DNA from: Alphaproteobacteria bacterium
GTDB lineage: Bacteria > Pseudomonadota > Alphaproteobacteria > Rhodobacterales > Rhodobacteraceae
NCBI GenBank assembly: GCA_030431935.1
Contig: JAUIIC010000001.1
Span: 1 to 62,169 of the forward strand
Length of the DNA stretch: 62,169 nt
Direction of reading: 5' to 3'
Each line of letters starts with the position of its first letter. The stretch's first letter is position 1. Both the position numbers and the translations under genes were made by a program. Positions 6,422-23,444 of this stretch are shown piece after piece. A model generated the notes under the pieces. That model was not told the origin of the DNA. It made no database searches and saw nothing but the letters and a program-made list of their open reading frames with translations.

Positions 6422-6611
6422 CGCGCCCCGGTGACGCAGGGCCAGATTCGGGTTGCGAAGGCGGGGATGGTCGCTTTATGTGCGCGGACAACACAGATGA
6501 TGACCCGAAACGCGCGCCCGCCGGATCAAGCACCCGCATGACACCCTCCGCCCATGACCTGACCCGCCGCCATGTTGCATGGCGGGCCGCCCATCGTGCA
6601 GAGGGCACCGT

Positions 6612-7424
6612 ATGCCGTTGACCGATCCCGCGCAGACACCCGCCGTGCATCCCACGGCCATCGTCGAGGACGGTGTGCAGCTTGGCGAAGGCGTTCGCAT
6701 CGGCCCGTATTGCGTGGTCGGCGCCGGATCCGTCCTGAAGGACGGGGTCGAGCTGCGCTCGCATGTCGTGGTCGAGGGCCGCACCACCCTTGGCGAAGGC
6801 ACGGTCGTTCATCCCTTCACCACGCTGGGCAGCGCACCCCAGCACCTGCGCTACGAGGGCGAGGATACCGCGCTTGTCGTCGGTGCGAACTGCGTGATCC
6901 GCGAACAGGTCTCGATCCACCGGGGCACCGCGCTGGGCGGCGGCGAAACCGTGATCGGCGCCAACGCGCTGGTGATGGCGGCCAGCCACATCGCCCATGA
7001 CTGCCACATCGGCGAGAACGTCATCGTCGCGTCGAACTGCACGCTCGGCGGGCATGTCGTCGTGGGCGACAACGTCTTTCTCGGCGGCCTGGCCGGGGTG
7101 CACCAGTTCTGCCGCATCGGCGCCCATGCCTTCGTCGGCGGCCTCGCTGCCGTCCACAGCGACGTGATCCCCTTCGGCTCGGCCATCGGCAACCGCGCCA
7201 AGCTGGGCGGGCTGAACCTTGTCGGGCTCAAGCGGGCGGGCTTCAGCCGTTCGACCATCAACGACATCCGTTCGGGCTACCGCGATCTCTTCAACGACGA
7301 CGTCGACAGCTTCAAGGAGCGGGTGGCCCAGGTCGCGCAGCGCTATGCCCATTCGCCCGAAGTCATGATGATCGTCGAGTTCATCGGCGCCGACACCAGC
7401 CGCCCCATACTGGGCGCGCGCTAG
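6612..7424 (+). CDS. lpxA: Acyl-ACP--UDP-N-acetylglucosamine O-acyltransferase (LpxA family)
   Basis: ORF 6579..7424, trimmed to the ATG at 6612. It has left-handed beta-helix hexapeptide repeats and LpxA signatures (IHPTAIV-like start, GSAPQHLRYEGE, IAHDCHIG, GGLNLVGLKRAGFS). The helical C-terminal domain is also LpxA-like. Confidence 0.85.
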   Translation: MPLTDPAQTPAVHPTAIVEDGVQLGEGVRIGPYCVVGAGSVLKDGVELRSHVVVEGRTTLGEGTVVHPFTTLGSAPQHLRYEGEDTALVVGANCVIREQVSIHRGTALGGGETVIGANALVMAASHIAHDCHIGENVIVASNCTLGGHVVVGDNVFLGGLAGVHQFCRIGAHAFVGGLAAVHSDVIPFGSAIGNRAKLGGLNLVGLKRAGFSRSTINDIRSGYRDLFNDDVDSFKERVAQVAQRYAHSPEVMMIVEFIGADTSRPILGAR

Positions 7425-7429: not shown

Positions 7430-8467
7430 ATGCCTGACCCCCGGTTCTTTCCCGTCCCCGATCCGGTCACGCTGGAGCAGGCCGCGCGCCTGACCGGCGC
7501 GCGCCTGTCCGACGGCGCCGATCCCGCGCAACGGATCACCTCGGTCGCGCCCGTCGACAGCGCCGGCCCGGGCGACGCCGCCTTCCTCGCCAGCCCGTCC
7601 GACACCGCTCGCCTCGACGCCTCGCGCGCGGGGGCCTGCTTTGTCACGCCTGCGCTGGCCGCGAAGCATCCCGGCGGCCGCGCCCTTCTGATCCACGACG
7701 CGCCGCAACGGGCCTTCGTCGCGCTGGCCCGTCACCTCTTTCCCGAACCGCCCCTGCAGCCCGGCATCAGCCCCGCCGCCCATGTCGCCGACGGCGCGCT
7801 GGTGGGCGCGGGCTGCCGCATCGACCCCGGCGCGGTGATCGAGGACGGGGCCGAGATAGGCGCGGGCAGCTGGATTCGCGCCGGCAGCGTCATCTGCGAG
7901 AACGTCGTCATCGGCGAGGGCGCCCGCATCGGCCCCAACGCCACCATCACCCACGCCATCCTCGGCGCGGGCGTCATCGTCCACGCGGGCGCCGCCATCG
8001 GGCAGGACGGCTTCGGCTATGTCCCAGGTCCGGCGGGGCTGGTGAAGGTGCCGCAACTGGGCCGCGTCCTGATCGGCGACGATGTCGAGATCGGGGCCAA
8101 CACCACCATCGACCGGGGCGCTGGCGGCGATACCGAGATCGGGCAGGGCACCAAGATCGACAACCAGGTGCAGATCGGCCACAACTGCCGCATCGGTCGC
8201 TTCTGCGCGCTGGCCAGCCAGGTGGGGCTGTCGGGCAGCGTCACCGTGGGCGACGGCGTCCAGATGGGGGGCAAGTCCGGCTCTGCCGACCACATCACCA
8301 TCGGCGCGGGCGCGAAACTGGCGGCGGGCACCGGGCTGATGCGCGACGTGCCGCCGGGTGCGGTCATGGCGGGCCGCCCGGCGCTGCCGATCAAGGACTG
8401 GCACCGCGATACCGTGAACCTGAAACGCCTGCGCGACCGCCGCCCGACGAAGGACAAGGACCAGTGA
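7430..8467 (+). CDS. lpxD: UDP-3-O-acylglucosamine N-acyltransferase (LpxD family)
   Basis: 345 aa. It has the typical alphaproteobacterial LpxD N-terminus (MPDPRFF...). A long hexapeptide-repeat beta-helix follows (QDGFGY, GRVLIGDDVEIGANTTIDRG, IDNQVQIGHN). It starts 5 nt after the lpxA stop. Confidence 0.85.
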   Translation: MPDPRFFPVPDPVTLEQAARLTGARLSDGADPAQRITSVAPVDSAGPGDAAFLASPSDTARLDASRAGACFVTPALAAKHPGGRALLIHDAPQRAFVALARHLFPEPPLQPGISPAAHVADGALVGAGCRIDPGAVIEDGAEIGAGSWIRAGSVICENVVIGEGARIGPNATITHAILGAGVIVHAGAAIGQDGFGYVPGPAGLVKVPQLGRVLIGDDVEIGANTTIDRGAGGDTEIGQGTKIDNQVQIGHNCRIGRFCALASQVGLSGSVTVGDGVQMGGKSGSADHITIGAGAKLAAGTGLMRDVPPGAVMAGRPALPIKDWHRDTVNLKRLRDRRPTKDKDQ

Positions 8468-9423
8468 AGATCCTCATCACCGGCGCCTCGGGATGCGTCG
8501 GGCGCTACCTTGTCGAGGCGCTGCTGGCCAACCCCGACCATCGCCTCGTCCTCGGCGTGCGCGAGGCCGCCAAGCTCGACGTGCTGTCCGACGCCGACCG
8601 CGCCCGCGTCGAGATCGTGGAATGCGACCTGACCGAACTCGCCGCGCGGCCAGAGGCGTTCGACGGCGTCGAGGCGGGCGTCCTTGTCGCCACCGCCTGG
8701 GGCGGGGGCGACACCTACGACATCACCGTGGGCGCCAACCTTGCCATCGCCGACGCGCTGATCGCCGCGGGTGCGCGCCATGTCCTCTACTTCGCCACCG
8801 CCAGCGTGCTCGACCAGCAGGGCGACCTGTTGCAGGCCGCGGACACCTTCGGCACCGACTATATCCGCGCCAAGTTCCAGCTTGTGCAGCAGATGGAAAC
8901 CCGCGCCGACCGGGCGCGCATCACCGGGCTTTATCCGACGCTGGTGATGGGCGGGCGCACCGCCGCGCCCGCGATCCGCATGTCGCATTTCGCCAACCTG
9001 ATGCACGAGATCCGCCCCTACGCCTGGGCGCTGCGCTTCATCAGCGCCAATGGCCTGTTCAACATCGTCCATGCCGCCGACATCGCGACCGTCACCCGCC
9101 ACCTGATCGAGACGGTGACGGACACGACCGGCAACGCGCGGCTTGTCCTCGGCAACCCCGCCGGCTCGGTGGACGAGATGATGGCCCAGTTCGCCCGCGC
9201 CAACGGCCGGCGCCAGCGCACGATCCTGCGCCTGCGCACGTCATGGGTGGACACGCTGACCCGGGTGCTGCCGATAAACCTGTCGCCCTGGGACCGCTTC
9301 TGCGTCGACCATCCCGACCAGTCGCACCCGGCCGCGGTGAACCCCGCCACCTACGGCCTGCCCGTGGTCATGCCCGACCTCGTCTCGGGCCTCGCCTCCA
9401 TCGGGATTTCCGGACGCGGCTGA
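8464..9423 (+). CDS. NAD(P)-dependent epimerase/dehydratase-family protein (atypical SDR)
   Basis: The GTG start at 8464 overlaps the lpxD stop by 4 nt. ILITGASGCVGRYL is a GxxGxxG dinucleotide fold, and YIRAK is a YxxxK motif. Confidence 0.7.
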   Translation: MKILITGASGCVGRYLVEALLANPDHRLVLGVREAAKLDVLSDADRARVEIVECDLTELAARPEAFDGVEAGVLVATAWGGGDTYDITVGANLAIADALIAAGARHVLYFATASVLDQQGDLLQAADTFGTDYIRAKFQLVQQMETRADRARITGLYPTLVMGGRTAAPAIRMSHFANLMHEIRPYAWALRFISANGLFNIVHAADIATVTRHLIETVTDTTGNARLVLGNPAGSVDEMMAQFARANGRRQRTILRLRTSWVDTLTRVLPINLSPWDRFCVDHPDQSHPAAVNPATYGLPVVMPDLVSGLASIGISGRG

Positions 9424-10180: not shown

Positions 10181-11077
10181 TCACGCCCCGTTTTCCGGCA
10201 CCTCGCGCCCGCGTCCGCCCTCGATCTCGGCATGGGCCAGAAGCAGCACCGCCATCAGCCCGCCGGGTTCCGGCCCGCCCGCCAGCACCTCCAGCATCCG
10301 CCGGTCGAGCCGCAGCACGGGGTCGAGCAGCCGGTCCAGCGCCCGGTATCCTGCCCAGCGCTTTGTCTGCAAGGCCACCGACAGGGTCGGGTGCTTGGCA
10401 TGGAACCGCGCCCCGTTGCGGCCCCGCGCCAGTTCCCGCCGCAGCCGCGCGGCAAGGCTCCGGTTCGCGGCGGGCGGCTTCCAGTGATAGATCGGCGCGG
10501 CCCTCTCGAACCGGGTTTGCAGGGGCCGCCGCATCAGGCGCGCGCAGAACTCGGGGTCTTCCCAGCCATATTCGCGAAAGCCCTCGTCGAACCCGCCCAC
10601 GGCGGTCACATGCGCCCGCGCGACAGAGGCGTTTCCGGTCGGCAAGGGATTGAAATGACGGTCGAAAATCCCCGCAGGCGGCGGGTTCTCCATGTCCTCG
10701 GGCGGGGCCGTGACATCGAGGATCGGCCCCGTCACCAGCCGGTCGTCATGGCCCGCATGATGCGCCAGGTGGCGCGCCAGGAAATCCGGCTTGATAAGCG
10801 AATCGTCGTCGACAAAGACCAGGATGCGCCCCTTGGCCATCCCGATCGCCCGGTTGCGCGCCGTCGACGGCCCGGCGTTTTCCGGCAGCGCGACATAGTG
10901 AAGGTTTGGCGCGGCCAGCCGCGCCATCACGGCGTCGGTCTCGGGGTCGGGGCCGTCGCTGACCACGATCACCTCGAAGGCCGCGTCGGTCCGTTGCCCC
11001 AGGAACAGCGGCACCGCCACCTCCAGCACCGCCGCGCGGCGGTAGGTCGGGACGATGAAACTCGCCTCGGGCGTCAT
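10181..11077 (-). CDS. Family-2 glycosyltransferase (possible polyprenyl-phosphate sugar transferase, ArnC/DPM1-like)
   Basis: 298 aa. SFIVPTYRR...EVIVVSDGPDP...LPENAGPSTARNRAI...ILVFVDDDS is the classical GT2 N-terminal half with a DxD motif. It starts 19 nt downstream of the aminotransferase gene. Confidence 0.75.
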   Translation of the reverse strand: MTPEASFIVPTYRRAAVLEVAVPLFLGQRTDAAFEVIVVSDGPDPETDAVMARLAAPNLHYVALPENAGPSTARNRAIGMAKGRILVFVDDDSLIKPDFLARHLAHHAGHDDRLVTGPILDVTAPPEDMENPPPAGIFDRHFNPLPTGNASVARAHVTAVGGFDEGFREYGWEDPEFCARLMRRPLQTRFERAAPIYHWKPPAANRSLAARLRRELARGRNGARFHAKHPTLSVALQTKRWAGYRALDRLLDPVLRLDRRMLEVLAGGPEPGGLMAVLLLAHAEIEGGRGREVPENGA

Positions 11078-11096: not shown

Positions 11097-12197
11097 CTAG
11101 CCGGAAAAGCCCTGCACGGCGTCGATCACCTGCGCGACCTCGTCATCGGTCATGTAGGGATGCGACGGCAGGCACAGCAGGGTGTCGGCATAGACCTCGG
11201 TGTTGGGTAGCCCGCCCGGCGCCGTCCGCGCCCCGGCAAAGGCCGGCTGCCGGTGGATCGGCTCCTTGTAATAGGCCACGGAAGGCACGTCGCGGGCGGC
11301 CAGGTGCTCTGCCAGGGCGTCCCGGGCCTCGCTGCGAACGACATAGTAGGCCCAGCAGGGATCGCTGCCCTCGGGCGGCGCGGGCAGGGTCACCTTGCCC
11401 GCCATTCCGGCGGCATAGCGCGCCGCGATGGATCGGCGGCGCACCAGCTCGTCATCGAAAATCGCCAGCTTTCGCAACAGGATAGCGGCCTGCATCGAGT
11501 CGAGCCGGGAGTTCGTGCCGACCATCGTGTGCCGCCCCTCGGACACCCCGTGGTTGGCGATGATCCGCGCCCGCTCGGCGATGCCGGGGTCGGCGGTGAA
11601 CATCGCGCCGCCGTCGCCATAGCCGCCCAGCGACTTCGAGGGATAAAAGCTCGTGCCCGCCGCATCGGCGAAGCTGCCGGCGCGCTTGCCGTCCAGCGTG
11701 GTACCAAAGCTCTGCGCCGCGTCGATCAGGAAGGGCAGGCCATGCTGCGCGCAGACCGCCCCCAGCGCCGCGTAATCGGCCGGCAGGCTGAAGAGGTCCA
11801 CCGCCATGACCGCGCCCGGCTTGCCGCCCGCCGCCTTCACCATGGCGATGGCTTCGGCCAGGCTGCCCGCGTCCATGTTCGCGGTGGCAAGGTCGACGTC
11901 CACGAAGACCGGTTCTGCCCCGATCAGCGCCACCGCCTCGGCGGTCGCCACGTAGGTCAGCGAGGGCACGAACACCACGTCCCCCGGCCCCACGCCCACC
12001 GCGCGCAGAAGGATCTGCAATGCGTCGGTGCCGTTGGCGCAGGCCACCGTATGTGCCACGCCCGCATAGGCCGAAAGCGCCGCCTCCAGTTCCTGAACCT
12101 CGGGCCCGTTCACGAAACGCCCGTGGTCGAGAACGGCTGTCACTGCAGCCGTCAGCCCGGGTTCCAGCGCATCGCGCTGGCGCCCGATATCCAGCAT
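11097..12197 (-). CDS. DegT/DnrJ/EryC1/StrS-family PLP-dependent sugar-nucleotide aminotransferase (GnnB/ArnB/WbpE-like)
   Basis: ORF 11097..12209 starts with TTG. The ATG at 12197 gives MLDIGRQRDAL..., the usual DegT N-terminus. The motifs GPEVQELE, NGTDAL, the active-site-Lys region SFYPSKSLGGYGDGG and NSRLDSMQAAIL are all present. Confidence 0.85.
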   Translation of the reverse strand: MLDIGRQRDALEPGLTAAVTAVLDHGRFVNGPEVQELEAALSAYAGVAHTVACANGTDALQILLRAVGVGPGDVVFVPSLTYVATAEAVALIGAEPVFVDVDLATANMDAGSLAEAIAMVKAAGGKPGAVMAVDLFSLPADYAALGAVCAQHGLPFLIDAAQSFGTTLDGKRAGSFADAAGTSFYPSKSLGGYGDGGAMFTADPGIAERARIIANHGVSEGRHTMVGTNSRLDSMQAAILLRKLAIFDDELVRRRSIAARYAAGMAGKVTLPAPPEGSDPCWAYYVVRSEARDALAEHLAARDVPSVAYYKEPIHRQPAFAGARTAPGGLPNTEVYADTLLCLPSHPYMTDDEVAQVIDAVQGFSG

Positions 12198-12287
12198 CCT
12201 GATCGTCAAGACGAATGTCCCCGTATGTTTCCGCCGTCTTAGCGGCAGTCGCGGGACGGTTCCAGAGGGCGTGTGCCGGGAAGCGCG

Positions 12288-13313
12288 TTATTCGCCGGCC
12301 CGCGCCATGGCGGCGATGTTGGGCGACAGGCGGCTGCGCTGGGTGTCCACGTCGGCCAGCGCGCGCAGGACGTTCAGACCTTCTGCCACGCTGGCGCGCG
12401 GGGTCTGGCCCGTCGCGGCGCAGTGCAGGAAGTGCTCCAGCTCGGACGTCAGCGGAAGCGTCTGGGGAATGGGCACGTATTCCGGCTCGGCGCTTTCGAA
12501 CTTGATGTCGCCGCCATCGTTCCAGACCTTGTGATTGTAGATCGCCAGCTTGCGTTCCCACGGCTCCAGGTCGTCGAACACGGCCATGGCCTTGTCGCCG
12601 ATCACGGTGAACTTGCGCTCGCGGTTCGGGGCGAGGCGCGAGATGAAGGTGTGCGACCGCGCGCCCGAGGAGAAGACCATGTGCAGATGCGCAAAATCGG
12701 GGGCGTCGGTGATCATCGCCGCGCCTTCCAGGTGCGTCGAGACCGGCATTTCCCCGGTGATCGCGAACAGAAGCGACAGGTCGTGCGGGGCGATGTCCCA
12801 CAGCGCGTCGGTCTGGACAAAGAACTTCCCCAGCCCGATCCGGGTGGAATAGACGTAGCGGATGGTTCCAAGGACGCCATCCTTGACCATCGCCTCCAGC
12901 GCCTCGAAGGCGGGATGAAAGCGCAGGACGTGGCCGGTCATCGCCACGACGCCCTTGCGCCGGGCCGTCTCGACAATCGCGTTGGCGCCCGCCACTTCCA
13001 GCGCCATGGGCTTTTCCACAAGCAGGTGCTTGCCGGTTTCCATGACCGCGAGCGATACCTCCACATGGCGATCTGCGGGCAGAGCCAGCACGACGGCGTC
13101 GATCTCGTCGCTCTGGATCATCTCCTTTGGCGTCATGGCCTTGCAGCCGTTCGCCTCGGCGGTGGCACGCATCCGCTCCGGGTCGTTGTCGGCCACCGCA
13201 GCCAGTGCACCCAACGACTTGAGCGTGCGGACATGGTTCGAACCCCAGTCGCCGCAGCCGATCACGCCCGCCCGCAGGCGGTGCCGGTTTTCAAGTCGTA
13301 TCAGTTCGGCCAT
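12288..13313 (-). CDS. Gfo/Idh/MocA-family NAD-dependent oxidoreductase (GnnA/WbpB-like sugar-nucleotide oxidase candidate)
   Basis: 341 aa. The N-terminal Rossmann segment is GVIGCGDWGSNH and the EKP motif is LLVEKPMA. It is the first gene of the minus-strand oxidoreductase-aminotransferase-GT2 unit. Confidence 0.75.
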   Translation of the reverse strand: MAELIRLENRHRLRAGVIGCGDWGSNHVRTLKSLGALAAVADNDPERMRATAEANGCKAMTPKEMIQSDEIDAVVLALPADRHVEVSLAVMETGKHLLVEKPMALEVAGANAIVETARRKGVVAMTGHVLRFHPAFEALEAMVKDGVLGTIRYVYSTRIGLGKFFVQTDALWDIAPHDLSLLFAITGEMPVSTHLEGAAMITDAPDFAHLHMVFSSGARSHTFISRLAPNRERKFTVIGDKAMAVFDDLEPWERKLAIYNHKVWNDGGDIKFESAEPEYVPIPQTLPLTSELEHFLHCAATGQTPRASVAEGLNVLRALADVDTQRSRLSPNIAAMARAGE

Positions 13314-13580: not shown

Positions 13581-14717
13581 ATGTACCTGATCCAGCGCCG
13601 GATACTGGCGAAAATGCTGTCGCAGACGCTCTTCGTGTTCTGCTTCGTCGGCGTGATCGTGACCACCACGCAGGTGCTGAACCAGGTGTTCCGCCTGATC
13701 GACGCGTCGTCGAACCTGCTTGTCGCGCTGGAAATGTTCGCCTTTCTCATCCCCACGATCACGGTCACCGTCCTGCCGTTGGCCTTCCTGATCGCCTGCA
13801 TCAACGTGCATGACCGCATGGACGAGGACCGCGAGACGGTGATCCTGTCCGGCACCGGCGCGCACCCGGCCTTCATCCTGCTGCCGGCGGGCGTGCTGGC
13901 GGCGGCGCTGTCGGGACTGGTGCTGGCCATCAGCCTCTACGTCGAGCCCTGGGGCAACCGGATGGGCAGCGACATCAAGAACGCCCTGACCTTCGACGCT
14001 CTCAAGATCATCGCCGGCAACGGGGTGCTGCGCGAGGTGCAGCCGGGCCTTTTCATCCGCGGCGGCGGCTATGACGAGAGCGGCCAGATCGACGGGCTCT
14101 TCATCCTCGACCGGCGCGCGGCGGACGAGGAGGTCAGCTATGTCGCCGAGCGCGGCGCCTTCTTCGAGACCGAGGCCGGCGTGATCCTTCGGCTCTATGA
14201 CGGGTCGATCCAGATCCGGGACGCAGACGGGCAGACCGTGCACAAGGTGCGCTTCGGTCGCTACCAGGCCGAGCCGAGGACCCTGTTCGAGGAGCCGTCG
14301 GGCCAGTCATACCGCCCGCGCCAGACCACCACGGCAGAACTTGTCCGGATGGTCGCCGAGGAGGACAACCGGCAATACACCATCAGTTCGATGCGCAAGG
14401 AGTTGATCCGGCGCTGGACCGACTGGCTTTACCCGCTTGTCTATTTCGCCATCGTTGCCTTTCTCGTGCTGCGCACGCGGCCCTCGCGCGAGGGCGCGCG
14501 CTGGCGGCTGCCGGTGGCGGTCCTGACCGGCTTCGTCATAAAGGCGGGGGGGCTGGTTCTGCTGGGCAGCGCCGGCACCAGCGGGGCGGCGGCGACGGCC
14601 AGTTTCGCGATGCCCGCGGGTGTGGTGGCCGGGCTTCTCGCGCTGGCCTTCCTGCAGGCCACGCGCGGGCGCCGGCCCCGGGTCCGCAGCCCTGCCGGCG
14701 GGCCAGCGCCGGCATAG
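13581..14717 (+). CDS. lptF: LptF/LptG-family (YjgP/YjgQ) permease, first of a pair
   Basis: ORF 13371..14717, trimmed to the ATG at 13581 (MYLIQRRILAKML...). The topology is three TM helices, a large periplasmic beta-jellyroll-like insert and three further TM helices, as in LptF/G. Whether it is the housekeeping copy or a paralogue cannot be told from this window. Confidence 0.7.
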   Translation: MYLIQRRILAKMLSQTLFVFCFVGVIVTTTQVLNQVFRLIDASSNLLVALEMFAFLIPTITVTVLPLAFLIACINVHDRMDEDRETVILSGTGAHPAFILLPAGVLAAALSGLVLAISLYVEPWGNRMGSDIKNALTFDALKIIAGNGVLREVQPGLFIRGGGYDESGQIDGLFILDRRAADEEVSYVAERGAFFETEAGVILRLYDGSIQIRDADGQTVHKVRFGRYQAEPRTLFEEPSGQSYRPRQTTTAELVRMVAEEDNRQYTISSMRKELIRRWTDWLYPLVYFAIVAFLVLRTRPSREGARWRLPVAVLTGFVIKAGGLVLLGSAGTSGAAATASFAMPAGVVAGLLALAFLQATRGRRPRVRSPAGGPAPA

Positions 14718-14805: not shown

Positions 14806-15972
14806 ATGGGCTATCGCACGATCTTCTGGTATTTTTTCCGGCAGCATATGGCGCTGACCGGGCTGGTGCTGGCGTGCCTGTTCTTGATCGTGTTCCTCGG
14901 CCAGTTCGCCGAATTGTCACGTCACCAGTCCGAGGCCGCGGGCTGGACGGCGATCGAGACCATGACGCTGTCGCTCTACCGCTCGCCGGTGCTGATGCAG
15001 GCGATCCTGCCGCATGTGATGCTGATCGCGTCGGCGCTGGCGGTGGCGCGGGCCAGCCGCCGGCTGGAGGTGACGATCCTGTTGCAGAACGGGCTTTCGC
15101 ATCTGAGAATCCTTCTGCCGGTCGCGTTGTCGGGCGCGGTGTTCGGGCTTGGGTACACGCTGGTGGCAAGCCCGCTGTCCAGCTACGCCTACAACGCCTC
15201 GGAACGCGCGCTGACCGAGCTTCTGGCGACGGCGCCCGATCCGGACCAGCGCAACCCGCGCGAGATGATGCTGCGCGACGAGACGGGCGCGAACTACCTG
15301 CTGATCGAACATGTGGCCGAGGATGCCCGCACCCTCTACGGCGTTCTGGTCTACCGGGTCGATCCGCGCCACAGCCTGCGCCAGAGCATCGAGGCCGAGC
15401 GCGCGGTCGCCACCGATACGGGCTGGCGGCTGGAGGGCGCGCGCGAACTGTTCCGCGCCCCCGACCTGGCCGACGAGGAATCTGTTCGCGCGACGCTGGT
15501 GTTCTCGCAGCGGGCGCTGGCGCAAAGATACGAGCGTGAAGAGGTCGCCTCGTTCTTCGCGCTGCCCGAAAAGATCGCGCTGGGGCAGATCGTGGGCGCG
15601 CCGGTGCACGAGTTGCAGGTGCAGTACTACTGGCTGGCCGCGCTCCCGGTGTTGCTGGGCGGGATCGCGCTGATGGCCGGGGCGATGGTGATGCGGCCCA
15701 TGCAGAGGGGCGGCTGGAAGGGCGATGCGGCGCTGATCCTCGGCGCGGCGTTCACGATCTACACGGTGTCGACGGTCCTCGACGCCCTGGGCACGCGCGG
15801 CGTGGTCGATCCGCTGGTGTCCACGGGGACGATCCCGGTGCTGTGCATCCTGGCCGGGCTGGGCGCGGTCTGGATAAAGCGCGGTGGGCCGTGGCGGATG
15901 CGGCAGGCAATGAACGCGCGCACCGCGCCGGCCGTGGCGCCGTCAGACGATCCCGCTGGTGCGGCGGGCTAG
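14806..15972 (+). CDS. lptG: LptF/LptG-family (YjgP/YjgQ) permease, second of a pair
   Basis: 388 aa with the same 3TM-insert-3TM layout (MGYRTIFWYFFRQHMALTG...). It is adjacent to and co-directional with the first copy. Confidence 0.7.
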   Translation: MGYRTIFWYFFRQHMALTGLVLACLFLIVFLGQFAELSRHQSEAAGWTAIETMTLSLYRSPVLMQAILPHVMLIASALAVARASRRLEVTILLQNGLSHLRILLPVALSGAVFGLGYTLVASPLSSYAYNASERALTELLATAPDPDQRNPREMMLRDETGANYLLIEHVAEDARTLYGVLVYRVDPRHSLRQSIEAERAVATDTGWRLEGARELFRAPDLADEESVRATLVFSQRALAQRYEREEVASFFALPEKIALGQIVGAPVHELQVQYYWLAALPVLLGGIALMAGAMVMRPMQRGGWKGDAALILGAAFTIYTVSTVLDALGTRGVVDPLVSTGTIPVLCILAGLGAVWIKRGGPWRMRQAMNARTAPAVAPSDDPAGAAG

Positions 15973-17644
15973 GGCGGTGCCCGGGCAGGCACCAACGGCC
16001 GACGCGGCCTCGGCCCTGTCGCGCGGCTGGCAGGCGGCGGTGGCACGCCCCGTTCTTGCAATCCTGACGCTGGTGATCCTGCAGCACGGGCTGACCATCG
16101 GCCTGAAGGACCTGTGGTTTTCCGACGAGGTCCGCCACGGCGACGTTCTGCGCAACCTGCTCGAGGGCGGAGACTGGCTGGCGTTGAAGCTGAACGGTGC
16201 CTTCTATCCCGACAAGCCGCCGCTCTATTTCTGGTATCTTGGCGCGCTGGCGCTGGTTTTCGGCTCGACCGCGCCCTGGGTGCTGTATGTCGGGCTGGCG
16301 GGCACGGTCCTGATGCTGCTGCTGGCCACGCATCACATGGCGCGGCGGATCACCGGCGACGATGAACTGGCGCTGATCGCCGTGCTGATCCTGGCCAGCG
16401 GCTTCTACTGGCTGGGCCTGACCCATTACGCGCGCATGGACATGATGTTCGCCGCCGCCATCGCGCTGGCCTGGACACAGGTCTGGCGGGCGCTGGACGG
16501 GCCGGTGAACCGGCGCGCGATGCTCTGGGCCTTCGGCTGGATGGCGGTGGCCGCGATGATAAAGGGGCCGGTCGGGCCGATGCTGCCGCTTCTGTCGCTG
16601 GCGGGCTGGGCGCTTTGGCAGCGCCGGGCGGCCGATCTGCTGGACCGCTCGGTGCTTGGAGGCGTGCTCTTGCTGGCGGGGGTGATCGGTGTCTGGGCGG
16701 GCGGCGTCGTCCTGGTGGCGGGGCCCGAGTTCTTCGCCCATCTCTTCCAGTCGCAGATCGTCGACAGAGGGCTGAACCGGGGCGGCGGCGGGCTTTGGGG
16801 CTGGCTGCGCTATGGCCTGACACTGCCGCTGGTGTTCTTGCCTTGGACGTTGCTGTTCCTGGTGCCGCGCGGCGCCAGCCCCCTGCCGGAGCAGTGCGGC
16901 ACGGCGTTTCTCTGGCTGACGGCGGGGCTCGGGGCGCTGTCGCTGTCGCTGGTCTCCGAAAAGCACGAATACTACCTCGTGCCCCTTTTCGTGCCGCTCG
17001 CGATCCTTGCGGCGGGACGGTACCGGACGTTGGGCGCGGGCCGGCTGCGGCTGTTCTGGGGCCTGGCGGTCGCGGTGTCGGTGTCGTTGGGGGCGCTCTT
17101 TGTCGTTGCACCGCGCCTTCTGGATCTGCCTGGGGTCGATCTGGGCGACTATGGCCCGCTTCTCGGCACGCTCGCGCTGCCGGGGGTGGTGCTGGCGGCT
17201 GGCGCCATGGCGGTCTGGGTGCTGCGGCGGCACGCGCAGGCGGCCCTTCTGGGCTGGGCGGGCCTTGTCTCGGTCTTCGGCGTGGTGCTGGCGGTCTCGG
17301 TCCTGCCGCCGGTGAACGCGGTCCTGAGCCCGCGCGGCGTGGCCGACGCCATGTCCGCGCATGTCGCGGCGGGGCACGCGCCCGGGGCTTTCCTCGGGGG
17401 CGATGGCACGCTGGCCTATCACATGGGACGCCCCTATGCCGATCCCTGGTCGTCGGCGGGGTTCACCGCATGGCTCGACGCGACGCCGCGCGCGGTCGCG
17501 GTGCTTGGCGCCGACGACTGGGCCCAGCTGGCCAGCGGCTATCCTGGCGTGGGCATCGTCGAGTGCACGCGGCTGGCGGGCCGGGCGCTGGTGATCGTGG
17601 CGCGCCCCGCGCCAGAGGCAATCAGGGAGTGCGCCGCGCACTAG
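15959..17644 (+). CDS. ArnT/PMT-like GT-C family membrane glycosyltransferase (GT83/GT39-like)
   Basis: Multi-TM protein of 561 aa. The N-terminal periplasmic loop motif DEVRHGDV...YPDKPPLYFW, followed by many TM helices (MIKGPVGP), is typical of ArnT-type lipid-linked sugar transferases. There is no ATG near the 5' end, so the start is taken as the GTG at 15959. That start overlaps the lptG stop by 14 nt and is uncertain. Confidence 0.7.
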   Translation: MRRARAVPGQAPTADAASALSRGWQAAVARPVLAILTLVILQHGLTIGLKDLWFSDEVRHGDVLRNLLEGGDWLALKLNGAFYPDKPPLYFWYLGALALVFGSTAPWVLYVGLAGTVLMLLLATHHMARRITGDDELALIAVLILASGFYWLGLTHYARMDMMFAAAIALAWTQVWRALDGPVNRRAMLWAFGWMAVAAMIKGPVGPMLPLLSLAGWALWQRRAADLLDRSVLGGVLLLAGVIGVWAGGVVLVAGPEFFAHLFQSQIVDRGLNRGGGGLWGWLRYGLTLPLVFLPWTLLFLVPRGASPLPEQCGTAFLWLTAGLGALSLSLVSEKHEYYLVPLFVPLAILAAGRYRTLGAGRLRLFWGLAVAVSVSLGALFVVAPRLLDLPGVDLGDYGPLLGTLALPGVVLAAGAMAVWVLRRHAQAALLGWAGLVSVFGVVLAVSVLPPVNAVLSPRGVADAMSAHVAAGHAPGAFLGGDGTLAYHMGRPYADPWSSAGFTAWLDATPRAVAVLGADDWAQLASGYPGVGIVECTRLAGRALVIVARPAPEAIRECAAH

Positions 17645-17662
17645 GCGCGGTGGGCGTGGAAC

Positions 17663-18412
17663 ATGGCGGATGCACGCTGGCACAAGGTCTACCTGGCGGA
17701 GATCCACGATCTCTATCCCGGGATGCAGCCCGGGGCCGAGGCCCTGCGCGCCGTCTTTCCGCAGGCCGCGCGCGACCGCGTGGCCTGGTCCATCGTGCCG
17801 AACTGGCAGGATCGCCTGGCGTTGACCGGCCACCCCCAGGCGGCGGCAGAGCTTGCCGCCCTGCCCGGAACGCCGGTCCTGCATGGCTGGACCCACAGCC
17901 TTGGCCCCGACTGGATCAACTGGCTGTTCTACGGCCACGACAACCGGTCAGAGTTCCTGCGCCTGTCCGAGGCCGAGGCCGGCGACCGGATCGCCCGTGG
18001 GCTGGCCGAGTTCCGCGCCGCACTCGACGTGACGCCGCGCTGGTTCTGCGCGCCGCGCTGGCAGTTGGGTGCGGGTGGCGCGGCGGCCCTGCGCAAGGCC
18101 GGGTTCGCCGGACATCTCTCGGGCGCGGGGATCGAGGTCTACGGCGAAGGCAGGGTGCCCTTGCCGGCGCTGAACTTCGACGAGGGCGAGCGGGGCTGGA
18201 AACAGGCGCTGGCGCGGCTGGCGCGGGCGCCCAGGGCGCGGCGGCTCTTGTCGCGCGGCACGCCCTTCCGGCTGGTCATCCATCCCGACGACCTGCGCTT
18301 TCCGGCGGTGCGGGCGGACCTGGAACGCTGCGTCGCGGCGATGGAGGCCGACGGCTGGCGGCCGCTCGGGCTTGACGAGATGCTGGCGCTGTGGCGACAG
18401 GTGCGTCCATGA
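17663..18412 (+). CDS. DUF2334-like protein (predicted polysaccharide-deacetylase-fold enzyme)
   Basis: 249 aa. The pattern IHDLYP...SIVPNW...LHGWTH...EF...RWFCAPRW...VIHP matches my memory of the DUF2334 / putative deacetylase family. No signal peptide is present. Confidence 0.55.
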   Translation: MADARWHKVYLAEIHDLYPGMQPGAEALRAVFPQAARDRVAWSIVPNWQDRLALTGHPQAAAELAALPGTPVLHGWTHSLGPDWINWLFYGHDNRSEFLRLSEAEAGDRIARGLAEFRAALDVTPRWFCAPRWQLGAGGAAALRKAGFAGHLSGAGIEVYGEGRVPLPALNFDEGERGWKQALARLARAPRARRLLSRGTPFRLVIHPDDLRFPAVRADLERCVAAMEADGWRPLGLDEMLALWRQVRP

Positions 18413-19605
18413 CGGCGCCGCGCATTCTTTTTGCCTCGAACGGGCATGGCGAGGACGACATCTCGTGCAAGGTGCTGGATGCGCTTGCGGCCAGCGGCGT
18501 GCCGTTCGAGCCCGAGGCCTGGGCGATGGTGGGCGAGGGGCGCGCCTATACCGCGCGCGGGGTGCCGCTGGTCGGGCCGCAACAGCGCCTGCCCGGAGAG
18601 GGCTTCGGCACGATCAGCATCGCGGCGCTCTGGCGCGACCTGCGGGCGGGGTATGTCGGCTCGCTCTGGGCGCAGGCGCGGTTCGCCCGAAGCCTTCGCG
18701 GCCGGCATGACCTGATCTTCGGCACCGGCGATATCATGCCGCTGCTGGCGGGGTGGTTCTCGGGCACGCCGATGCTGTTCATTCCAAGCGCCAAGTCCGC
18801 CTATTACGGCGGCGCGGACGGACATACGGGCATCGAGCGCTGGCTGATGCGCCGCGTGGCGCGCGACAGCTTTCCCCGCGATGCGCGCACGGCGGACGGG
18901 CTGGCCGCGCAAGGCGTCCCAGTGCGCTACCTCGGCAACCCGATGATGGACGGGCTGGACCCGGTGTCACCCGAAAGCCTGCGGGGCCGTGGCGTGACGG
19001 TGGCGATGATGGCGGGCTCGCGCCGGGATGCCGTGGAGAACGCGGTGCTGCTTCTCGACGCTGCGGCGACGGCCGCCGCCGCGGACGAAGAGCCGTCCAG
19101 GTTCGCCTTTCTCTTCGCCGCGCACGAGGCGCTGGACTTCCAGCGGGTGGCCGCGACCGCGCCCATCGCCTGGGAGCGCGGCCAATGGGACCGGCCGCTC
19201 GACGACCGGGGCGAGGCGATGTGCCTGCGGCACCGGACCGGGGCGGCGGCGCTGTTCGTCAAGGGCCGGTTCGCCGACGTGCTCCATGCCTCGGACATGG
19301 TGGCCGGAATGGCGGGCACCGCCAACGAGCAGGCGATCGGGCTGGGCCTGCCTCTGGTTGCCGTGCCGGGGCAGGGCAACCAGGGGCCGGCCTACCTGCG
19401 GATGAAGATGCGCTATTACGGCCCGGCCGCGGTCTTTGCCCCGCGCGAGCCCGACGCGGTGGCGCGGGCGATCCGGGATGTGCTGTCGGACCCGGTGCGC
19501 CGCCGCGAGATGGCGGCGGCGGGGCGCGAGCGGATGGGCGCGCCAGGGGCCAGCGCGGCGATCGCGGCGCGCGTGGCGGCGATGCTGGAGGCCGGCGATG
19601 GCTGA
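18409..19605 (+). CDS. Lipid-A-disaccharide synthase-related protein (LpxB superfamily, GT-B; SNGHGED-type)
   Basis: ORF 18391..19605. The ATG at 18409 overlaps the upstream stop (ATGA). ILFASNGHGEDDIS, GNPMMDGL, MAGSRRDA (compare LPGSR in LpxB) and GMAGTANEQAIGLGLPLV are the signatures I associate with the LpxB-related family. Confidence 0.65.
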   Translation: MTAPRILFASNGHGEDDISCKVLDALAASGVPFEPEAWAMVGEGRAYTARGVPLVGPQQRLPGEGFGTISIAALWRDLRAGYVGSLWAQARFARSLRGRHDLIFGTGDIMPLLAGWFSGTPMLFIPSAKSAYYGGADGHTGIERWLMRRVARDSFPRDARTADGLAAQGVPVRYLGNPMMDGLDPVSPESLRGRGVTVAMMAGSRRDAVENAVLLLDAAATAAAADEEPSRFAFLFAAHEALDFQRVAATAPIAWERGQWDRPLDDRGEAMCLRHRTGAAALFVKGRFADVLHASDMVAGMAGTANEQAIGLGLPLVAVPGQGNQGPAYLRMKMRYYGPAAVFAPREPDAVARAIRDVLSDPVRRREMAAAGRERMGAPGASAAIAARVAAMLEAGDG

Positions 19606-20587
19606 TCCTGCGGTCTCCATCGTCATCACCGCCCACAACGAGGCCGCCCATATCGGAGCGACCGTGGCCGCCGCGGCGGCCCAGGCGGGTGTGCCCGGCG
19701 GCTTCGAGATCGTGCTGGTGGACGACCGCAGCACAGACGGCACCGCCGAGGCGGCGCGCGCGGCGGGGGGCGATCTGCTGCGGCTCTACCCCGGCGCGCC
19801 GGACCCCGCGTCGCCGCTGACGACGCGGCAACAGGCGCTGGACCTCGCTTTCCGCAAGGCGCGCGGGCAGGTGATCCTGACGCTCGACGCCGACAGCGCG
19901 ATGGCCCCGGACTGGGCGGCCAGGATGGCCGCCCCGATGCTGGAGGGCCGTGCCGATGCGGTGGCCGGGCGCATCGGCTTTGCCCCGGCGGACCACTGGG
20001 TCGCGCGCTGGCAGACCTGCGATGCGCAGTATTACTTCCTCGTCTCCGCGCTGCTGGTCAGGGCTGGGTTCGGCGGCGGCGTCTTCTTCGGGAACTTCGG
20101 GTTTCGCCGGGCGCTCTACGACCAGGTCGGCGGGTTCGAGGCGATCGGCTTTGCCCTGACCGAGGATCTTGCCTTCGCCCAGGCGATCCAGGCGGCTGGG
20201 GCGCGGCTCGACTTCGCGGGGCAGGACGCGCGCGTCGACGTCAGGCCTTGCGCCGATTTCCCGGCGCTGGTCACCCGCACGCTGCGGATCTCTGCCGGGC
20301 GGGTCTCGGCCCTGGCGCTGGTGCTGACGGTCTGGCCGCTGAGCTTGCCAGCGCTGATCCTGCTGGCGCTGCTGACCGGCGCGGGCGGGGCATGGGTTGC
20401 GGTGGGGCTGCGCTATGGGCTAGGCGTGGCGCTTGTCCGGGCGGCGCTGGCCGGGCACCCCGACCGGCGCGTGCGCGGCTTCGCGCCGTTCTACGAGCCG
20501 GTGGTCTACCGGCTGTCGGCGGCGGTGCTGGCGCGCGTGTTGCGCCGTGAAAGGGTAGGATGGGGAGGCGGGCAGTATGGCCGCTGA
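19598..20587 (+). CDS. Family-2 glycosyltransferase with C-terminal transmembrane segments
   Basis: ORF 19436..20587, trimmed to the ATG at 19598, which overlaps the upstream stop by 8 nt. VSIVITAHNEAAHI...EIVLVDDRSTDGT...ILTLDADS is a GT2 core. The hydrophobic C-terminal third (ALALVLTVWPLSLPALILLALL) suggests membrane integration. Confidence 0.75.
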   Translation: MADPAVSIVITAHNEAAHIGATVAAAAAQAGVPGGFEIVLVDDRSTDGTAEAARAAGGDLLRLYPGAPDPASPLTTRQQALDLAFRKARGQVILTLDADSAMAPDWAARMAAPMLEGRADAVAGRIGFAPADHWVARWQTCDAQYYFLVSALLVRAGFGGGVFFGNFGFRRALYDQVGGFEAIGFALTEDLAFAQAIQAAGARLDFAGQDARVDVRPCADFPALVTRTLRISAGRVSALALVLTVWPLSLPALILLALLTGAGGAWVAVGLRYGLGVALVRAALAGHPDRRVRGFAPFYEPVVYRLSAAVLARVLRRERVGWGGGQYGR

Positions 20588-21317
20588 GCGCAGGCAACGG
20601 GCCGCGGGGACAGTGCGTCCCTATGAACCGCGCGACCGCGCGGCGGTGCGCGACATCTGCTGCCGCACCGCCTTTCGCAACATGGGCTCGGATGCCCTGT
20701 TCGAGGATCGCGAGATCCATGCCGATTACTGGACGCTCTACAACACCGATCACCGGCCCGACCTGACCACGGTGATCGAGCAGGACGGAGAGGTGGTGGG
20801 CTATTTCTTCGCCCAGCCCGACCACAAGGAATTCGTGCGCATCATGGGGCGGCGGATCGTGCCGTCCTGTATCCTGCGCGCGCTTTGGCGCTGGGCGCTG
20901 GGGCGCTACAGGAAGCCCGAGACCAAGCGCTACATCCGCCACACGCTATTCCGGGCCTGGAAAGAGGCGCCGCAGGTCGATTACGACAAGTACCCGGCCA
21001 CCTATCACTGCAACATGCTGCGGCAGGCCTATGGACGGGGCTACTATACACAGCTTCTGCTGGACTATCTCGACCAGCTGGAGGCGCAGGGCATCCACGG
21101 CATCCACGGCCATGTGACCGAGGCACCGGGCAAGGGCATCTGGAAGCGCTTCGAAGAGACCTCGGGCTTTCTGTCGGACGAACAGTCCGAGGTGCCCGCA
21201 ACGATGTTTGCCTATGTCACCGGCGACGACAGGCCGATGGCGAACAAGGCCATCGGCGCCCCGGTGGAGCGTTTTCGCAAGTGGGTGCTGTGGCTGCGAG
21301 AGGAAAAGCGGCTGTGA
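20577..21317 (+). CDS. Hypothetical acyl-CoA N-acyltransferase-like (GNAT-like) protein
   Basis: 246 aa. The start overlaps the upstream gene by 11 nt. VRPYEPRDRAAVRDICCRTAF...GEVVGYFFA resembles the N-terminal half of GNAT enzymes. The assignment is tentative. Confidence 0.45.
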   Translation: MAAERRQRAAGTVRPYEPRDRAAVRDICCRTAFRNMGSDALFEDREIHADYWTLYNTDHRPDLTTVIEQDGEVVGYFFAQPDHKEFVRIMGRRIVPSCILRALWRWALGRYRKPETKRYIRHTLFRAWKEAPQVDYDKYPATYHCNMLRQAYGRGYYTQLLLDYLDQLEAQGIHGIHGHVTEAPGKGIWKRFEETSGFLSDEQSEVPATMFAYVTGDDRPMANKAIGAPVERFRKWVLWLREEKRL

Positions 21318-22579
21318 CCGGCCCCGGCACCGAGGCCGCGGCGCGGCCCCAGCTTGTCATCACCGTGAACGGCCCCGGCGAGATCGCGGCCTGGCTTTAC
21401 CCCCTGAGCGTCGCCGTCAGGCGTGCGCGCCCCGACATCCGCATCTGCGTGTGCCTTCTGCCTTGCGTCTTTTCGTCGGGCGCCGAGCGCGGGGTTCTGG
21501 ACGGGATGGAGACCGTGGACGCCGTGGCGGATGTCGGCCAGTCCTTCGGCCTGATCCTGAAGGACCGGCTGCCCGATGGCTTCCGGCGCGACGTGCCGAC
21601 GCTTCTGTTCCATCTGGGCGGAGAGACCGCGCTGACCGTGCTGATCGCCCGCAGGCTGGGCTGCAGGATGTTCGGCTATGCCGAGGCGCCCCCGGGCTGG
21701 CAGGGCCGGTTCGAGCGCCTGTTCTTCAGCGGGTTGAACAAGCTGCCGCCGGCCATCCCGCCCGAGGACATCGTGGGCGACATGATGGTGGACGCGGCCG
21801 ACCTGCGCCGCGCCGCCGCGCGCCGCGACGCGGACGGCACCACGACGATCGGGCTGTTTCCCGGCAGCCGAGACTACATGGTCGGGCCGCTTCTGCCCTT
21901 CATGGCGGCGGCGGCCGACGAATTGGCCCGGCGCCGCCCGGCGCTACGCTTTGTCATGGCAAAGTCCGATTTCCTCGACTGGGATTTCCTCGCCAACCTG
22001 CCGCGCAGCGATCCCGGCGCCGAGTGGGCGGTCAGCGAGGTGACGCTTCACCGCGAGGACGGGCGGGCCTGGCTGATGACGGGGGCGGGCACAAGGATCG
22101 ACGTCCTGACCAATGCACAGGTGCTTGCCGGGGCAGATCTGGCCGTGTCCCTGCCGGGCACCAATACAGGCGAGATGGGGGCGGCCGGCCTGCCCAGCGT
22201 GGTGATCGTGCCGCTGCACATGGCCAACCGCAACGCGCATCAGACCCCGCTGCCGGGCTTGCCGGGGCACGTGGGGCGCATCCCGCTGATCGGCCCGCCG
22301 CTGCAGCGCCTCTTCGCGCACCAGGCGCTCAAGCGCACGCCGCTCCTGTCGCTGCCGAACCGGCGCGCGGGGCGGATGATCGTGCCGGAACTGGTGGGCG
22401 ACCTGACGCCCGGCGATATTGCCGACACGCTGGAGACCCTTCTCGACGGCGATCGCGCCGCCCTGTCGGCAGAGTTGAGAGCGGCAATGGGGGCAGGCGG
22501 GGCGGCGGCCCGGCTGGCCGACGAGATCGACGGCTATTTCCGCGCGCTGGTCCCGGCGGCGGCCCCCTCGAACGCCTGA
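21314..22579 (+). CDS. Lipid-A-disaccharide synthase-like glycosyltransferase (LpxB/GT19-like)
   Basis: Same frame as ORF 20885..22579. The start is taken as the GTG at 21314, in a GTGA overlap with the upstream stop. It lies just before LVITVNGPGEIAAW, the equivalent of the GETSGD loop region. LFPGSRDY (LpxB LLPGSR) and LLSLPNRRAGRMIVPELVG (LpxB VSLPNLLAGRELVKELL) support LpxB homology. Confidence 0.65.
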   Translation: MTGPGTEAAARPQLVITVNGPGEIAAWLYPLSVAVRRARPDIRICVCLLPCVFSSGAERGVLDGMETVDAVADVGQSFGLILKDRLPDGFRRDVPTLLFHLGGETALTVLIARRLGCRMFGYAEAPPGWQGRFERLFFSGLNKLPPAIPPEDIVGDMMVDAADLRRAAARRDADGTTTIGLFPGSRDYMVGPLLPFMAAAADELARRRPALRFVMAKSDFLDWDFLANLPRSDPGAEWAVSEVTLHREDGRAWLMTGAGTRIDVLTNAQVLAGADLAVSLPGTNTGEMGAAGLPSVVIVPLHMANRNAHQTPLPGLPGHVGRIPLIGPPLQRLFAHQALKRTPLLSLPNRRAGRMIVPELVGDLTPGDIADTLETLLDGDRAALSAELRAAMGAGGAAARLADEIDGYFRALVPAAAPSNA

Positions 22580-23376: not shown

Positions 23377-23444
23377 GCCCCGCCTATAGACCGCGCTGCG
23401 GGGTTTCGCCAGAAAGGAGGAACGGGCAAGGAGGAGGACCTGCG

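Follow-up and report, generated by a model that had tools for sequence, protein, structure and literature searches.

Why would a single operon encode two glycosyltransferases that both resemble LpxB, the lipid A disaccharide synthase, and what could such a pair make? The question is raised by a 62,169-nt stretch of DNA (hereafter the window) with a G+C content of about 69%, from a marine-type alphaproteobacterium of the family Rhodobacteraceae (assembly GCA_030431935.1, contig JAUIIC010000001.1). Genes were called from frame plots of G+C at third codon positions (GC3), which are clear in this DNA. Four co-oriented open reading frames (ORFs), all backed by the GC3 plot, lie at positions 18409-22579. 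They are called genes 1 to 4 or P1, G2, G3 and P4.

18409..19605, plus strand: gene 1 (P1), TIGR03492-family glycosyltransferase of GT-B fold, 398 aa, soluble or peripheral (hidden Markov model match, AlphaFold2 model)
19598..20587, plus strand: gene 2 (G2), membrane-anchored GT2 glycosyltransferase, 329 aa, GT21/HpnI-like, with C-terminal transmembrane helices (PF00535)
20577..21317, plus strand: gene 3 (G3), GNAT-fold acyl/acetyl-transferase, 246 aa, of a family related to the C-terminal domain of O-GlcNAcase (family profile)
21314..22579, plus strand: gene 4 (P4), GT-B glycosyltransferase of a third, uncurated LpxB-like family, 421 aa, GTG start (family profile)

The first-pass annotation of this DNA had described a single tightly packed operon with overlaps of 8, 11 and 4 nt at the junctions. 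The coordinates confirm the three overlaps (19598-19605, 20577-20587, and GTGA at 21314-21317) and the tight packing is borne out. The motifs quoted for gene 1 (SNGHGED, MAGSR and GTANEQ) and for gene 4 (VNGPGE, LFPGSR and SLPNRRAGRMIVPEL) are all found in the translations.

We consider it probable that the block to which these genes belong makes and exports a glycolipid of the lipopolysaccharide (LPS) type. On balance, we view genes 1-4 as the core of a conserved biosynthesis-and-export block for such a glycolipid built on lipid A. Within it, genes 1 and 4 would, with somewhat more in favour than against, be non-redundant, active glycosyltransferases of the head group or inner core and not LpxB isoenzymes.

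The donor site of LpxB contains a PGSR loop with the essential R201, as well as T277 and E281 (PMC5785501). The equivalent residues are FPGSR186 and T283/E287 in gene 4, and AGSR205 and T304/E307 in gene 1. The loop arginine and the Thr/Glu pair are invariant or near-invariant in 44 homologues of gene 4 and 39 homologues of gene 1. In the latter set, the motifs AGSR205 and GT304ANE307Q are invariant. Because the catalytic motifs are invariant across both families, we rejected the idea of an inactive remnant, which had been put forward as a case that would refute the initial reading. It is unlikely for both genes; neither looks like a remnant and both are likely active. Comparison of the two family profiles with hhalign gave a probability of 98.9% (E 1.3e-17), with 22% identity and alignment of the C-terminal domain only. 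A recent duplication of genes 1 and 4 is therefore ruled out, and the view that the two had diverged anciently is upheld.

How close are the two proteins to LpxB itself (GT19; TIGR00215/PF02684; 5W8S)? They share with it the GT-B fold, the loop with the essential arginine, and the Thr/Glu pair that binds the UDP phosphate and ribose. Like LpxB, they have no transmembrane segment, would be peripheral on the cytoplasmic face, and have lpxA, lpxD and msbA as gene neighbours. The C-terminal motif (S/L)PN..AG..VPEL is kept in gene 4 only. On the other hand, both proteins score far under the curated thresholds. At the N-terminus, LpxB has GE-x-SGD, whereas gene 4 has NGPGE and gene 1 has NGHGED; in both the Glu is retained and the Ser is absent. 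E104 of gene 4 and D108 of gene 1 fall within 1-2 columns of LpxB D98, the predicted catalytic base, in a region where the alignment is uncertain. The gene 4 family also has an insertion of about 40 residues at the position of the LpxB crossover helix. Hence the assignment of both proteins to the LpxB superfamily, as first proposed, stands in a broad sense, but neither passes PF02684 or TIGR00215, the GT19 models. Gene 1 passes TIGR03492 and gene 4 passes none of the models. To our knowledge, no activity other than that of LpxB has been characterised in its glycosyltransferase family.

Gene 1 is a full-length member of TIGR03492, an uncharacterised NCBIfam hypothetical equivalog named 'lipid-A-disaccharide synthase-related protein' (274.4 bits, E 1.2e-81, cutoff 219.2; residues 7-392 on model positions 1-395). 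A Limnochordales protein encoded next to MsbA also passes the trusted cutoff (221 bits). The LpxB model PF02684 is not matched by gene 1 at its cutoff (13.5 bits, cutoff 22.6). The link of the gene 1 family to LpxB is marginal at the profile level (E 0.017). The AlphaFold2 model of gene 1 has the GT-B fold, with a predicted local distance difference test (pLDDT) score of 95.5.

Gene 4 lies below every curated LpxB model: 15.9 bits for PF02684 (cutoff 22.6), 16.3 for TIGR00215 (190) and 15.8 for TIGR03492 (219). For comparison, a true LpxB from a Limnochordales locus (L003) scores 294.8 bits. The profile of the gene 4 family, built from 44 sequences, matches E. coli LpxB (5w8s) with E 1.7e-12, and this is the sole match at that level. 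Conserved motifs are FPGSR186, PGT283NTGE287 and SLPN349RRAG..VPEL. In general form, the hallmarks of the family are NGPGE..W, (F/L)PGSR, PGTNT.E and PN..AG..VPE in proteins of about 400-430 aa, and gene 4 has them all. Its AlphaFold2 model has the GT-B fold (pLDDT 92.6). An exhaustive profile search at E<=1e-30 defined 507 clusters at 50% identity. Representatives were compared in a BLAST matrix: those of the gene 4 type, drawn from four phyla, reach 150-170 bits among themselves, 37-69 bits with canonical LpxB and 21-28 bits with TIGR03492 (P1) proteins. Canonical LpxB, TIGR03492 and the gene-4-type proteins are thus three separate families. Gene 4 appears to be the closer LpxB relative of the two, in a third family that has no curated model. 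As a separate observation, in a Foldseek search the gene 4 model (mfe1b558be71e) matched at ranks 3, 4 and 6 chains of the Tetrahymena respiratory complex I/supercomplex (8b6f_A0, 8gym_T1 and 7tgh_T1; E about 1e-8), which suggests that Tetrahymena complex I may contain a GT-B-fold accessory subunit.

The genes between the two LpxB-like genes are, as first described, a membrane GT2 and a GNAT gene. Gene 2 scores 80.5 bits with PF00535 (cutoff 23.3) and 55.8 bits with PF13506 (GT21), and has transmembrane-like segments at residues 236-272. Its DxD and ED motifs (D97/D99 and E189/D190) are invariant. The best solved relative of its family profile is the membrane GT2 6yv7 (2.6e-20); the value for ceramide glucosyltransferase is 1.6e-4. 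Gene 3 is under the cutoff of the Pfam GNAT model PF00583 (16.4 bits, cutoff 20.7). The profile of its family (13 sequences) matches the acetyltransferases 4bmh (E 3.5e-20) and 3zj0 (7.5e-10), and we take gene 3 to be a genuine GNAT.

The operon is larger than genes 1-4. The earlier description holds for these four, but it overlooked a wider unit that reaches up to 15 kb upstream and comprises LptFG, the DUF2334 gene, a GT-C enzyme, a second GT2 and the lpxA, lpxD, gnnA and gnnB genes:

17663..18412, plus strand: DUF2334-family deacetylase-like protein, 249 aa, cytoplasmic (PF10096)
15959..17644, plus strand: ArnT/PMT-like GT-C membrane glycosyltransferase, 561 aa, a variable member of the block (sub-cutoff ArnT model, PF02366)
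14806..15972, plus strand: LptG-like permease, 388 aa (PF03739)
13581..14717, plus strand: LptF-like permease; the ORF opens at 13371 and the probable start is ATG 13581 (PF03739)
12288..13313, minus strand: GnnA-like Gfo/Idh/MocA oxidoreductase (UDP-GlcNAc 3-dehydrogenase-like), divergent from lptF (PF01408)
11097..12209, minus strand: DegT/GnnB-like sugar aminotransferase (PF01041, 331 bits)
10181..11077, minus strand: second GT2 ('GT2up'), soluble (PF00535, 81 bits)
8464..9423, plus strand: NmrA/epimerase-type short-chain dehydrogenase/reductase (SDR), after lpxD (PF01370, PF05368)
7430..8467, plus strand: LpxD, UDP-3-O-acylglucosamine N-acyltransferase (NF002060, 374.5 bits, cutoff 207)
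6579..7424, plus strand: LpxA, UDP-GlcNAc acyltransferase (NF003657, 329 bits, cutoff 226)

The order on the plus strand is LptF-like, LptG-like, GT-C, DUF2334 and genes 1-4. The ORFs of DUF2334 and gene 1 share 4 nt (ATGA). Beyond the second GT2 are found a small GNAT, the SDR, LpxD, LpxA and then a PglF/CapD-like dehydratase. Since lpx, gnn-like, glycosyltransferase and Lpt genes fill positions 4532-22579, about 18 kb of the window is given over to lipid A-type chemistry and Lpt export. From their sequences, genes 1, 3 and 4, the DUF2334 protein and the second GT2 are predicted to have neither transmembrane segment nor signal peptide and should therefore act on the cytoplasmic face. The GT-C enzyme should work on the periplasmic face.

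The DUF2334 protein matches PF10096 (42.9 bits, cutoff 26) and scores 53.3 bits with the equivalog model of GpgD, the GlcNAc-phosphatidylglycerol deacetylase (NF053788, cutoff 280). It would be a distant relative of GpgD within the same superfamily. GpgD provides the experimental precedent for a DUF2334 enzyme that deacetylates a GlcNAc-lipid (PMC12713373). In the GpgS/GpgD system (glucosaminyl-phosphatidylglycerol, P. aeruginosa), in HexSDF of C. difficile and in ArnC/ArnD/ArnT, a lipid receives from a glycosyltransferase an N-acetyl-hexosamine whose acetyl group is then stripped on the cytoplasmic side by a DUF2334/COG3233 deacetylase, a logic that resembles that of the block. The block differs from these in having a GNAT and two LpxB-like enzymes. 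It also differs in that its glycosyltransferase is a GT2 and not a GT4, and in its ties to lpx and lpt genes instead of a UPF0104 flippase. Moreover, its deacetylase is far under the GpgD equivalog cutoff.

The GT-C protein, with at least nine transmembrane-like segments, scores 85.9 bits with the ArnT model NF009784, below cutoff, and 25.9 bits with PF02366; its gene is also present in loci L002, L005, L007 and L010. The LptF-like protein scores 147.5 bits with PF03739 and 154 bits with TIGR04407 (equivalog cutoff 230). For the LptG-like protein the values are 140 bits and, with TIGR04408, 133.5 bits (cutoff 240). The LptF start at ATG 13581 was deduced from the alignment offset and the MYLIQRR N-terminus. 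The upstream extension of this ORF (13371-13580, about 70 codons) is Arg/Pro/Cys-rich, is unmatched by LptF models or by the 371-aa Anianabacter orthologue, and is probably untranslated. The GnnA-like protein matches PF01408 and scores below cutoff with NF040723 (159 bits). The position of its gene is kept in L001, L005, L007, L012 and L086.

Is this arrangement conserved? The P1-G2-G3-P4 order is found in 15 of 16 informative loci, from Alpha- and 'Delta'-proteobacteria, Gemmatimonadota and Armatimonadota. Carriers include Anianabacter salinae ASV31 (GCA_019061145.1), Meinhardsimonia xiamenensis (GCA_900102905.1), Nitratireductor arenosus CAU 1489, a Gemmobacter metagenome-assembled genome (MAG) and an Armatimonadetes MAG. 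The best 80 loci in a scan of 185,579 species genomes include about 8 proteobacterial species, so the block is rare in this phylum. A DUF2334 gene accompanies the block (linkage in 12 related loci) and LptF/LptG genes are often upstream. Directly downstream of the block, nine loci have an MsbA-like ABC transporter and a second GT2. Orthologues of the window's second GT2 follow P4-MsbA in L010, L011, L013, L015 and L016, and a relative adjoins the TIGR03492 gene in the Limnochordales locus L003. A tblastn search of 72,556 plasmids with genes 1 and 4 returned no match; we thus have no evidence for a plasmid-borne block.

In the window and in Anianabacter, the block stands next to lpxA-lpxD and gnnA/gnnB-like genes. 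The lpx context was read from the contigs of Meinhardsimonia, Anianabacter, the Gemmobacter MAG and a Parvularculaceae MAG around LpxA. The window's lpxA-lpxD-SDR genes (6579-9423) form a compact unit without fabZ, lpxI and lpxB, which also occurs in Anianabacter (L085) and in Meinhardsimonia (L087, near prfA and lptD-surA). This arrangement is non-canonical for Alphaproteobacteria (compare L091). In the Gemmobacter MAG (GCA_046292445.1, contig 7, about 3600-12400; L089), a DUF2334 gene is grouped with gnnA-like, DegT, SDR, lpxA and lpxD genes, and after them come genes for a GT4 glycosyltransferase and for a protein of the Metallophos/5'-nucleotidase-C type, perhaps a UDP-diacylglucosamine hydrolase similar to LpxH. 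The deacetylase might act early here, in an LpxC-like step. This MAG has its P1-G2-G3-P4 operon on a separate contig (L090).

Outside the Proteobacteria, both families occur inside LPS clusters. In Limnochordales and 'Clostridia' MAGs (diderm Firmicute-like), they are part of a complete LPS/outer-membrane cluster with the order LptC-LptA-LptB-LpxC-FabZ-LpxA-LpxI-LpxB (canonical, 295 bits)-P4-like-MsbA-TIGR03492-like-(GT2)-LptB-LptF/G-porin/SLH. Canonical LpxB and the gene-4-like gene are side by side in four such loci, and neither lpxK nor waaA was found within the cluster. In Trueperaceae (L030, L042, L045, L060, L069 and L079) and in Deinococcales MAGs (L020-L022 and L027), the order is LpxD-LpxC-GnnA-FabZ-LpxA-P4-like-MsbA. 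Such a lipid A-type cluster in Deinococcota is worth pointing out because Deinococcus itself is regarded as devoid of LPS. The gene 4 family is also common in Cyanobacteria, where the P4-like gene stands alone. Cyanobacteria have only LpxA, LpxC, LpxD and LpxB, and their LPS lacks Kdo (3-deoxy-D-manno-oct-2-ulosonic acid), heptose and phosphate (PMC3087551).

LpxB and the gene 4 family are even joined in one polypeptide. The natural fusion proteins P0392 (789 aa) and P0447 (814 aa) consist of a canonical LpxB at the N-terminus (332 and 244 bits with TIGR00215, respectively) and a domain of the gene 4 family at the C-terminus. For P0447, the cluster comprises 92 near-identical members, spread over many independent contigs that reach 628 kb, so the fusion is not an assembly artefact. 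Because the gene 4 family coexists with canonical LpxB, adjoins it and is sometimes fused to it, its members would share a pathway with LpxB without being copies of it, and their reaction is probably unlike that of LpxB. The position between lpxB and msbA in the diderm Firmicute-like clusters is the one expected for a step after LpxB and before flipping, as for the Kdo transferase WaaA/KdtA (GT30). By functional analogy, the gene 4 family would, like WaaA, be an inverting GT-B enzyme acting on a lipid A intermediate. In contrast to this likeness, no sequence relationship with WaaA is detectable and the donor would presumably be a UDP-sugar instead of CMP-Kdo.

How might the block work? LpxB places its sugar on the 6-OH of an acylated glucosamine lipid, and in classical LPS WaaA adds Kdo. 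In the scheme that we favour, LpxA, LpxD and the gnnA/gnnB-like enzymes would provide an acylated (di)amino-sugar nucleotide. Four glycosyltransferases (gene 1, gene 2, gene 4 and the second GT2) are predicted on the cytoplasmic face, together with a putative DUF2334 deacetylase, a GNAT acyltransferase, LptF/LptG permeases and a periplasmic ArnT-like GT-C. The gene 4 enzyme would work directly with LpxB, as no duplicate of it. With an LpxB-type acceptor geometry, it would add a UDP-sugar to the lipid A disaccharide at WaaA's step. That it is specifically a 6'-OH transferase replacing WaaA is a tentative proposal, and a doubtful one. The gene 1 and GT2 enzymes would add further sugars. The DUF2334 protein could remove the N-acetyl group from one added N-acetylhexosamine (HexNAc), and the GNAT could then re-acylate this sugar, by an LpxC/LpxD-like logic. 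The product would be flipped by an MsbA-type transporter, the gene of which is adjacent in other lineages, and extracted by LptFG; the GT-C enzyme may decorate it in the periplasm. A head group more complex than the lipid A disaccharide, as suggested by the first-pass annotation, agrees with the location of both families beside lpxB and msbA and with the fusions; to that extent we infer it.

Several points weigh against this scheme. The donor sugars, the acceptor and the linkage are entirely inferred, from homology, gene order and fusions, and no msbA gene was found in the window. Foldseek comparison of both AlphaFold2 models with the PDB retrieved generic GT-B proteins, with UDP-GlcNAc 2-epimerases at the top and LpxB at rank 18. 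Foldseek is not discriminating here, as the LpxB crystal is a domain-swapped dimer and TM-scores to it are low. Our literature searches found no characterisation of the gene 4 family or of LpxB paralogues of its kind, of TIGR03492 or 'lipid-A-disaccharide synthase-related' proteins, or of either family by way of Truepera/Deinococcus lipid A genes or Limnochordia LPS. In module-bearing Paracoccaceae, no lpxI-lpxB comes after lpxA-lpxD, and the only LpxB-type enzyme of these carriers might thus be gene 4. By contrast, a Parvularculaceae LpxA 60% identical to that of the window sits in a canonical lpxD-fabZ-lpxA-lpxI-lpxB cluster. No canonical lpxB was found within 10 kb in the Trueperaceae or Deinococcales MAGs; in both, the gene-4-like gene comes right after lpxA and before msbA, and in Trueperaceae it thereby fills the usual lpxB slot. 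These facts would suit a simpler explanation, a form of which the first-pass annotation had named as refuting its reading, in which gene 4 is the lineage's housekeeping disaccharide synthase, a divergent isofunctional LpxB, and genes 1-3 are ordinary core glycosylation or modification enzymes. It would also account for the conservation of the PGSR loop, GT..E and PN..AG..VPEL in gene 4, and for the label 'lipid-A-disaccharide synthase' that JGI and NCBI give to the Meinhardsimonia orthologue. We nevertheless consider it unlikely, in view of the four diderm Firmicute-like loci in which canonical LpxB stands beside the gene-4-like gene, the reproducible fusions, and the 16 bits of gene 4 with TIGR00215 (cutoff 190). 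Cyanobacteria, too, have a canonical lpxB in the lpx cluster (PMC3087551) and a separate gene-4-like gene. In the module carriers lpxA-lpxD has moved out of the canonical cluster, with which a location of lpxI and lpxB elsewhere is compatible.

The cargo could also be another lipid altogether. The GT2 would place HexNAc on a glycerolipid, a ceramide or another lipid alcohol; deacetylation, re-acylation and extension by the two GT-B enzymes would follow, and dedicated LptFG/MsbA paralogues would export this separate, non-lipid-A membrane glycolipid. The resemblance of gene 2 to GT21/ceramide glucosyltransferase and HpnI-type lipid-acceptor enzymes points this way, as do the relationship of the DUF2334 protein to GpgD (PMC12713373), the sub-equivalog scores of LptF and LptG, the MsbA-like gene that many block loci have of their own, and the low number of proteobacterial carriers in our scan, as for an accessory system. 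LptFG paralogues serving another lipid have a precedent (bioRxiv 10.64898/2026.04.12.717747): the LptF2/LptG2 permeases of the Caulobacter sphingolipid locus are, similarly, LptF/LptG-family permeases within an alphaproteobacterial lipid biosynthesis locus. However, no sphingolipid or glycerolipid synthesis genes are found at the window locus; lpxA, lpxD and gnnA/gnnB-like genes stand close to the block here and in related loci, both GT-B families are inside complete LPS clusters of other phyla, and gene-4-family domains are fused to LpxB. This route is thus quite improbable. Rather less so, though still improbable, is that part of the operon is a periplasmic lipid A modification route of the Arn/Lgm type, with the two GT-B enzymes acting independently. 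In such a route, undecaprenyl phosphate would receive HexNAc from the GT2. Once deacetylated by the DUF2334 protein, the sugar, now a cationic amino sugar, would be passed to lipid A by the GT-C. The trio could indeed be read in this way: its architecture parallels ArnC/ArnD/ArnT, the three genes occur together in the window and in L002, L005, L007 and L010, and gene 2 has C-terminal transmembrane helices. But the GT-C is absent from L001, L004, L011, Gemmatimonadota and L090, hence dispensable to the block, and the GT2 gene invariably lies between genes 1 and 3, with overlaps at the junctions. In addition, gene 2 matches ArnC weakly (20 bits) and HpnB/HpnI/GT21-type models better.

If the lipid A-based scheme is followed further, TIGR03492 and the gene 4 family may both be glycosyltransferases that, independently of Kdo, place the first sugars of the core on the lipid A disaccharide, a broader proposal that we regard as rather unlikely. 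The hosts would then be 'four-enzyme' lipid A bacteria without LpxK, WaaA and Kdo (Cyanobacteria, Limnochordia-like diderm Firmicutes and some Deinococcota). The alphaproteobacterial locus would be a horizontally acquired, self-contained LPS pathway of Terrabacteria type with its own LptFG (elsewhere MsbA), which would run beside the classical Kdo-lipid A route or have replaced it. TIGR03492 was already known as an uncharacterised model. The gene 4 family has no model. With the two, an LPS-type pathway would employ a pair of uncharacterised LpxB-like glycosyltransferases in a conserved block coupled to export.

Downstream of gene 4, a phenylacetate catabolism cluster occupies positions 22534-35759, mostly on the minus strand:

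22534-23559, convergent with gene 4: paaX; the 3' ends overlap by 46 nt
23445-23882, plus strand: hotdog thioesterase
23932-26241: paaZ
25983-27308: cytochrome P450, between paaZ and paaK
27238-29091: ORF of paaK, match from residue 196
within 22534-35759: paaE, paaA and a 3-oxoadipyl-CoA thiolase

A functional link between the block and the paa genes was rejected, as the latter are on the opposite strand and the block is in other neighbourhoods elsewhere. The paa cluster is inserted solely in the window lineage and in Meinhardsimonia. Farther on, genes for an M20 deacylase and a peptide/nickel-type ABC transporter (substrate-binding protein, permeases and a fused double ATPase) are common to the window (36445-47132) and Anianabacter (L001, 13229-20885), so the downstream flank is partly syntenic. 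At the other end of the window, two genes of aromatic catabolism have no relation to the block: one at 252-1280 on the minus strand, for a TRAP-type DctP solute-binding protein, and one at 2001-2891, which resembles an intradiol (chloro)catechol 1,2-dioxygenase with a score below the equivalog cutoff. Region 2907-4409 has a coding-type GC3 signal (minus strand to about 3970, plus strand at about 3960-4409), and its products match no Pfam or NCBIfam family.

Overall, two further LpxB-like families, conserved and apparently active, are tied to lipid A synthesis and to Lpt/MsbA export in at least six phyla. Judged by their position in LPS clusters and by the fusion to LpxB, they would act once the disaccharide has formed and before it is flipped, at a stage that in classical LPS belongs to LpxK and WaaA. 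These genes are concrete candidates, also with a view to how the core may be attached in Kdo-free LPS such as that of cyanobacteria, with cultured carriers in Anianabacter salinae, Meinhardsimonia xiamenensis, Nitratireductor arenosus and many cyanobacteria. The block may also provide a second example, besides that of Caulobacter sphingolipids, in which genes for LptFG-type permeases accompany the pathway that makes their cargo.

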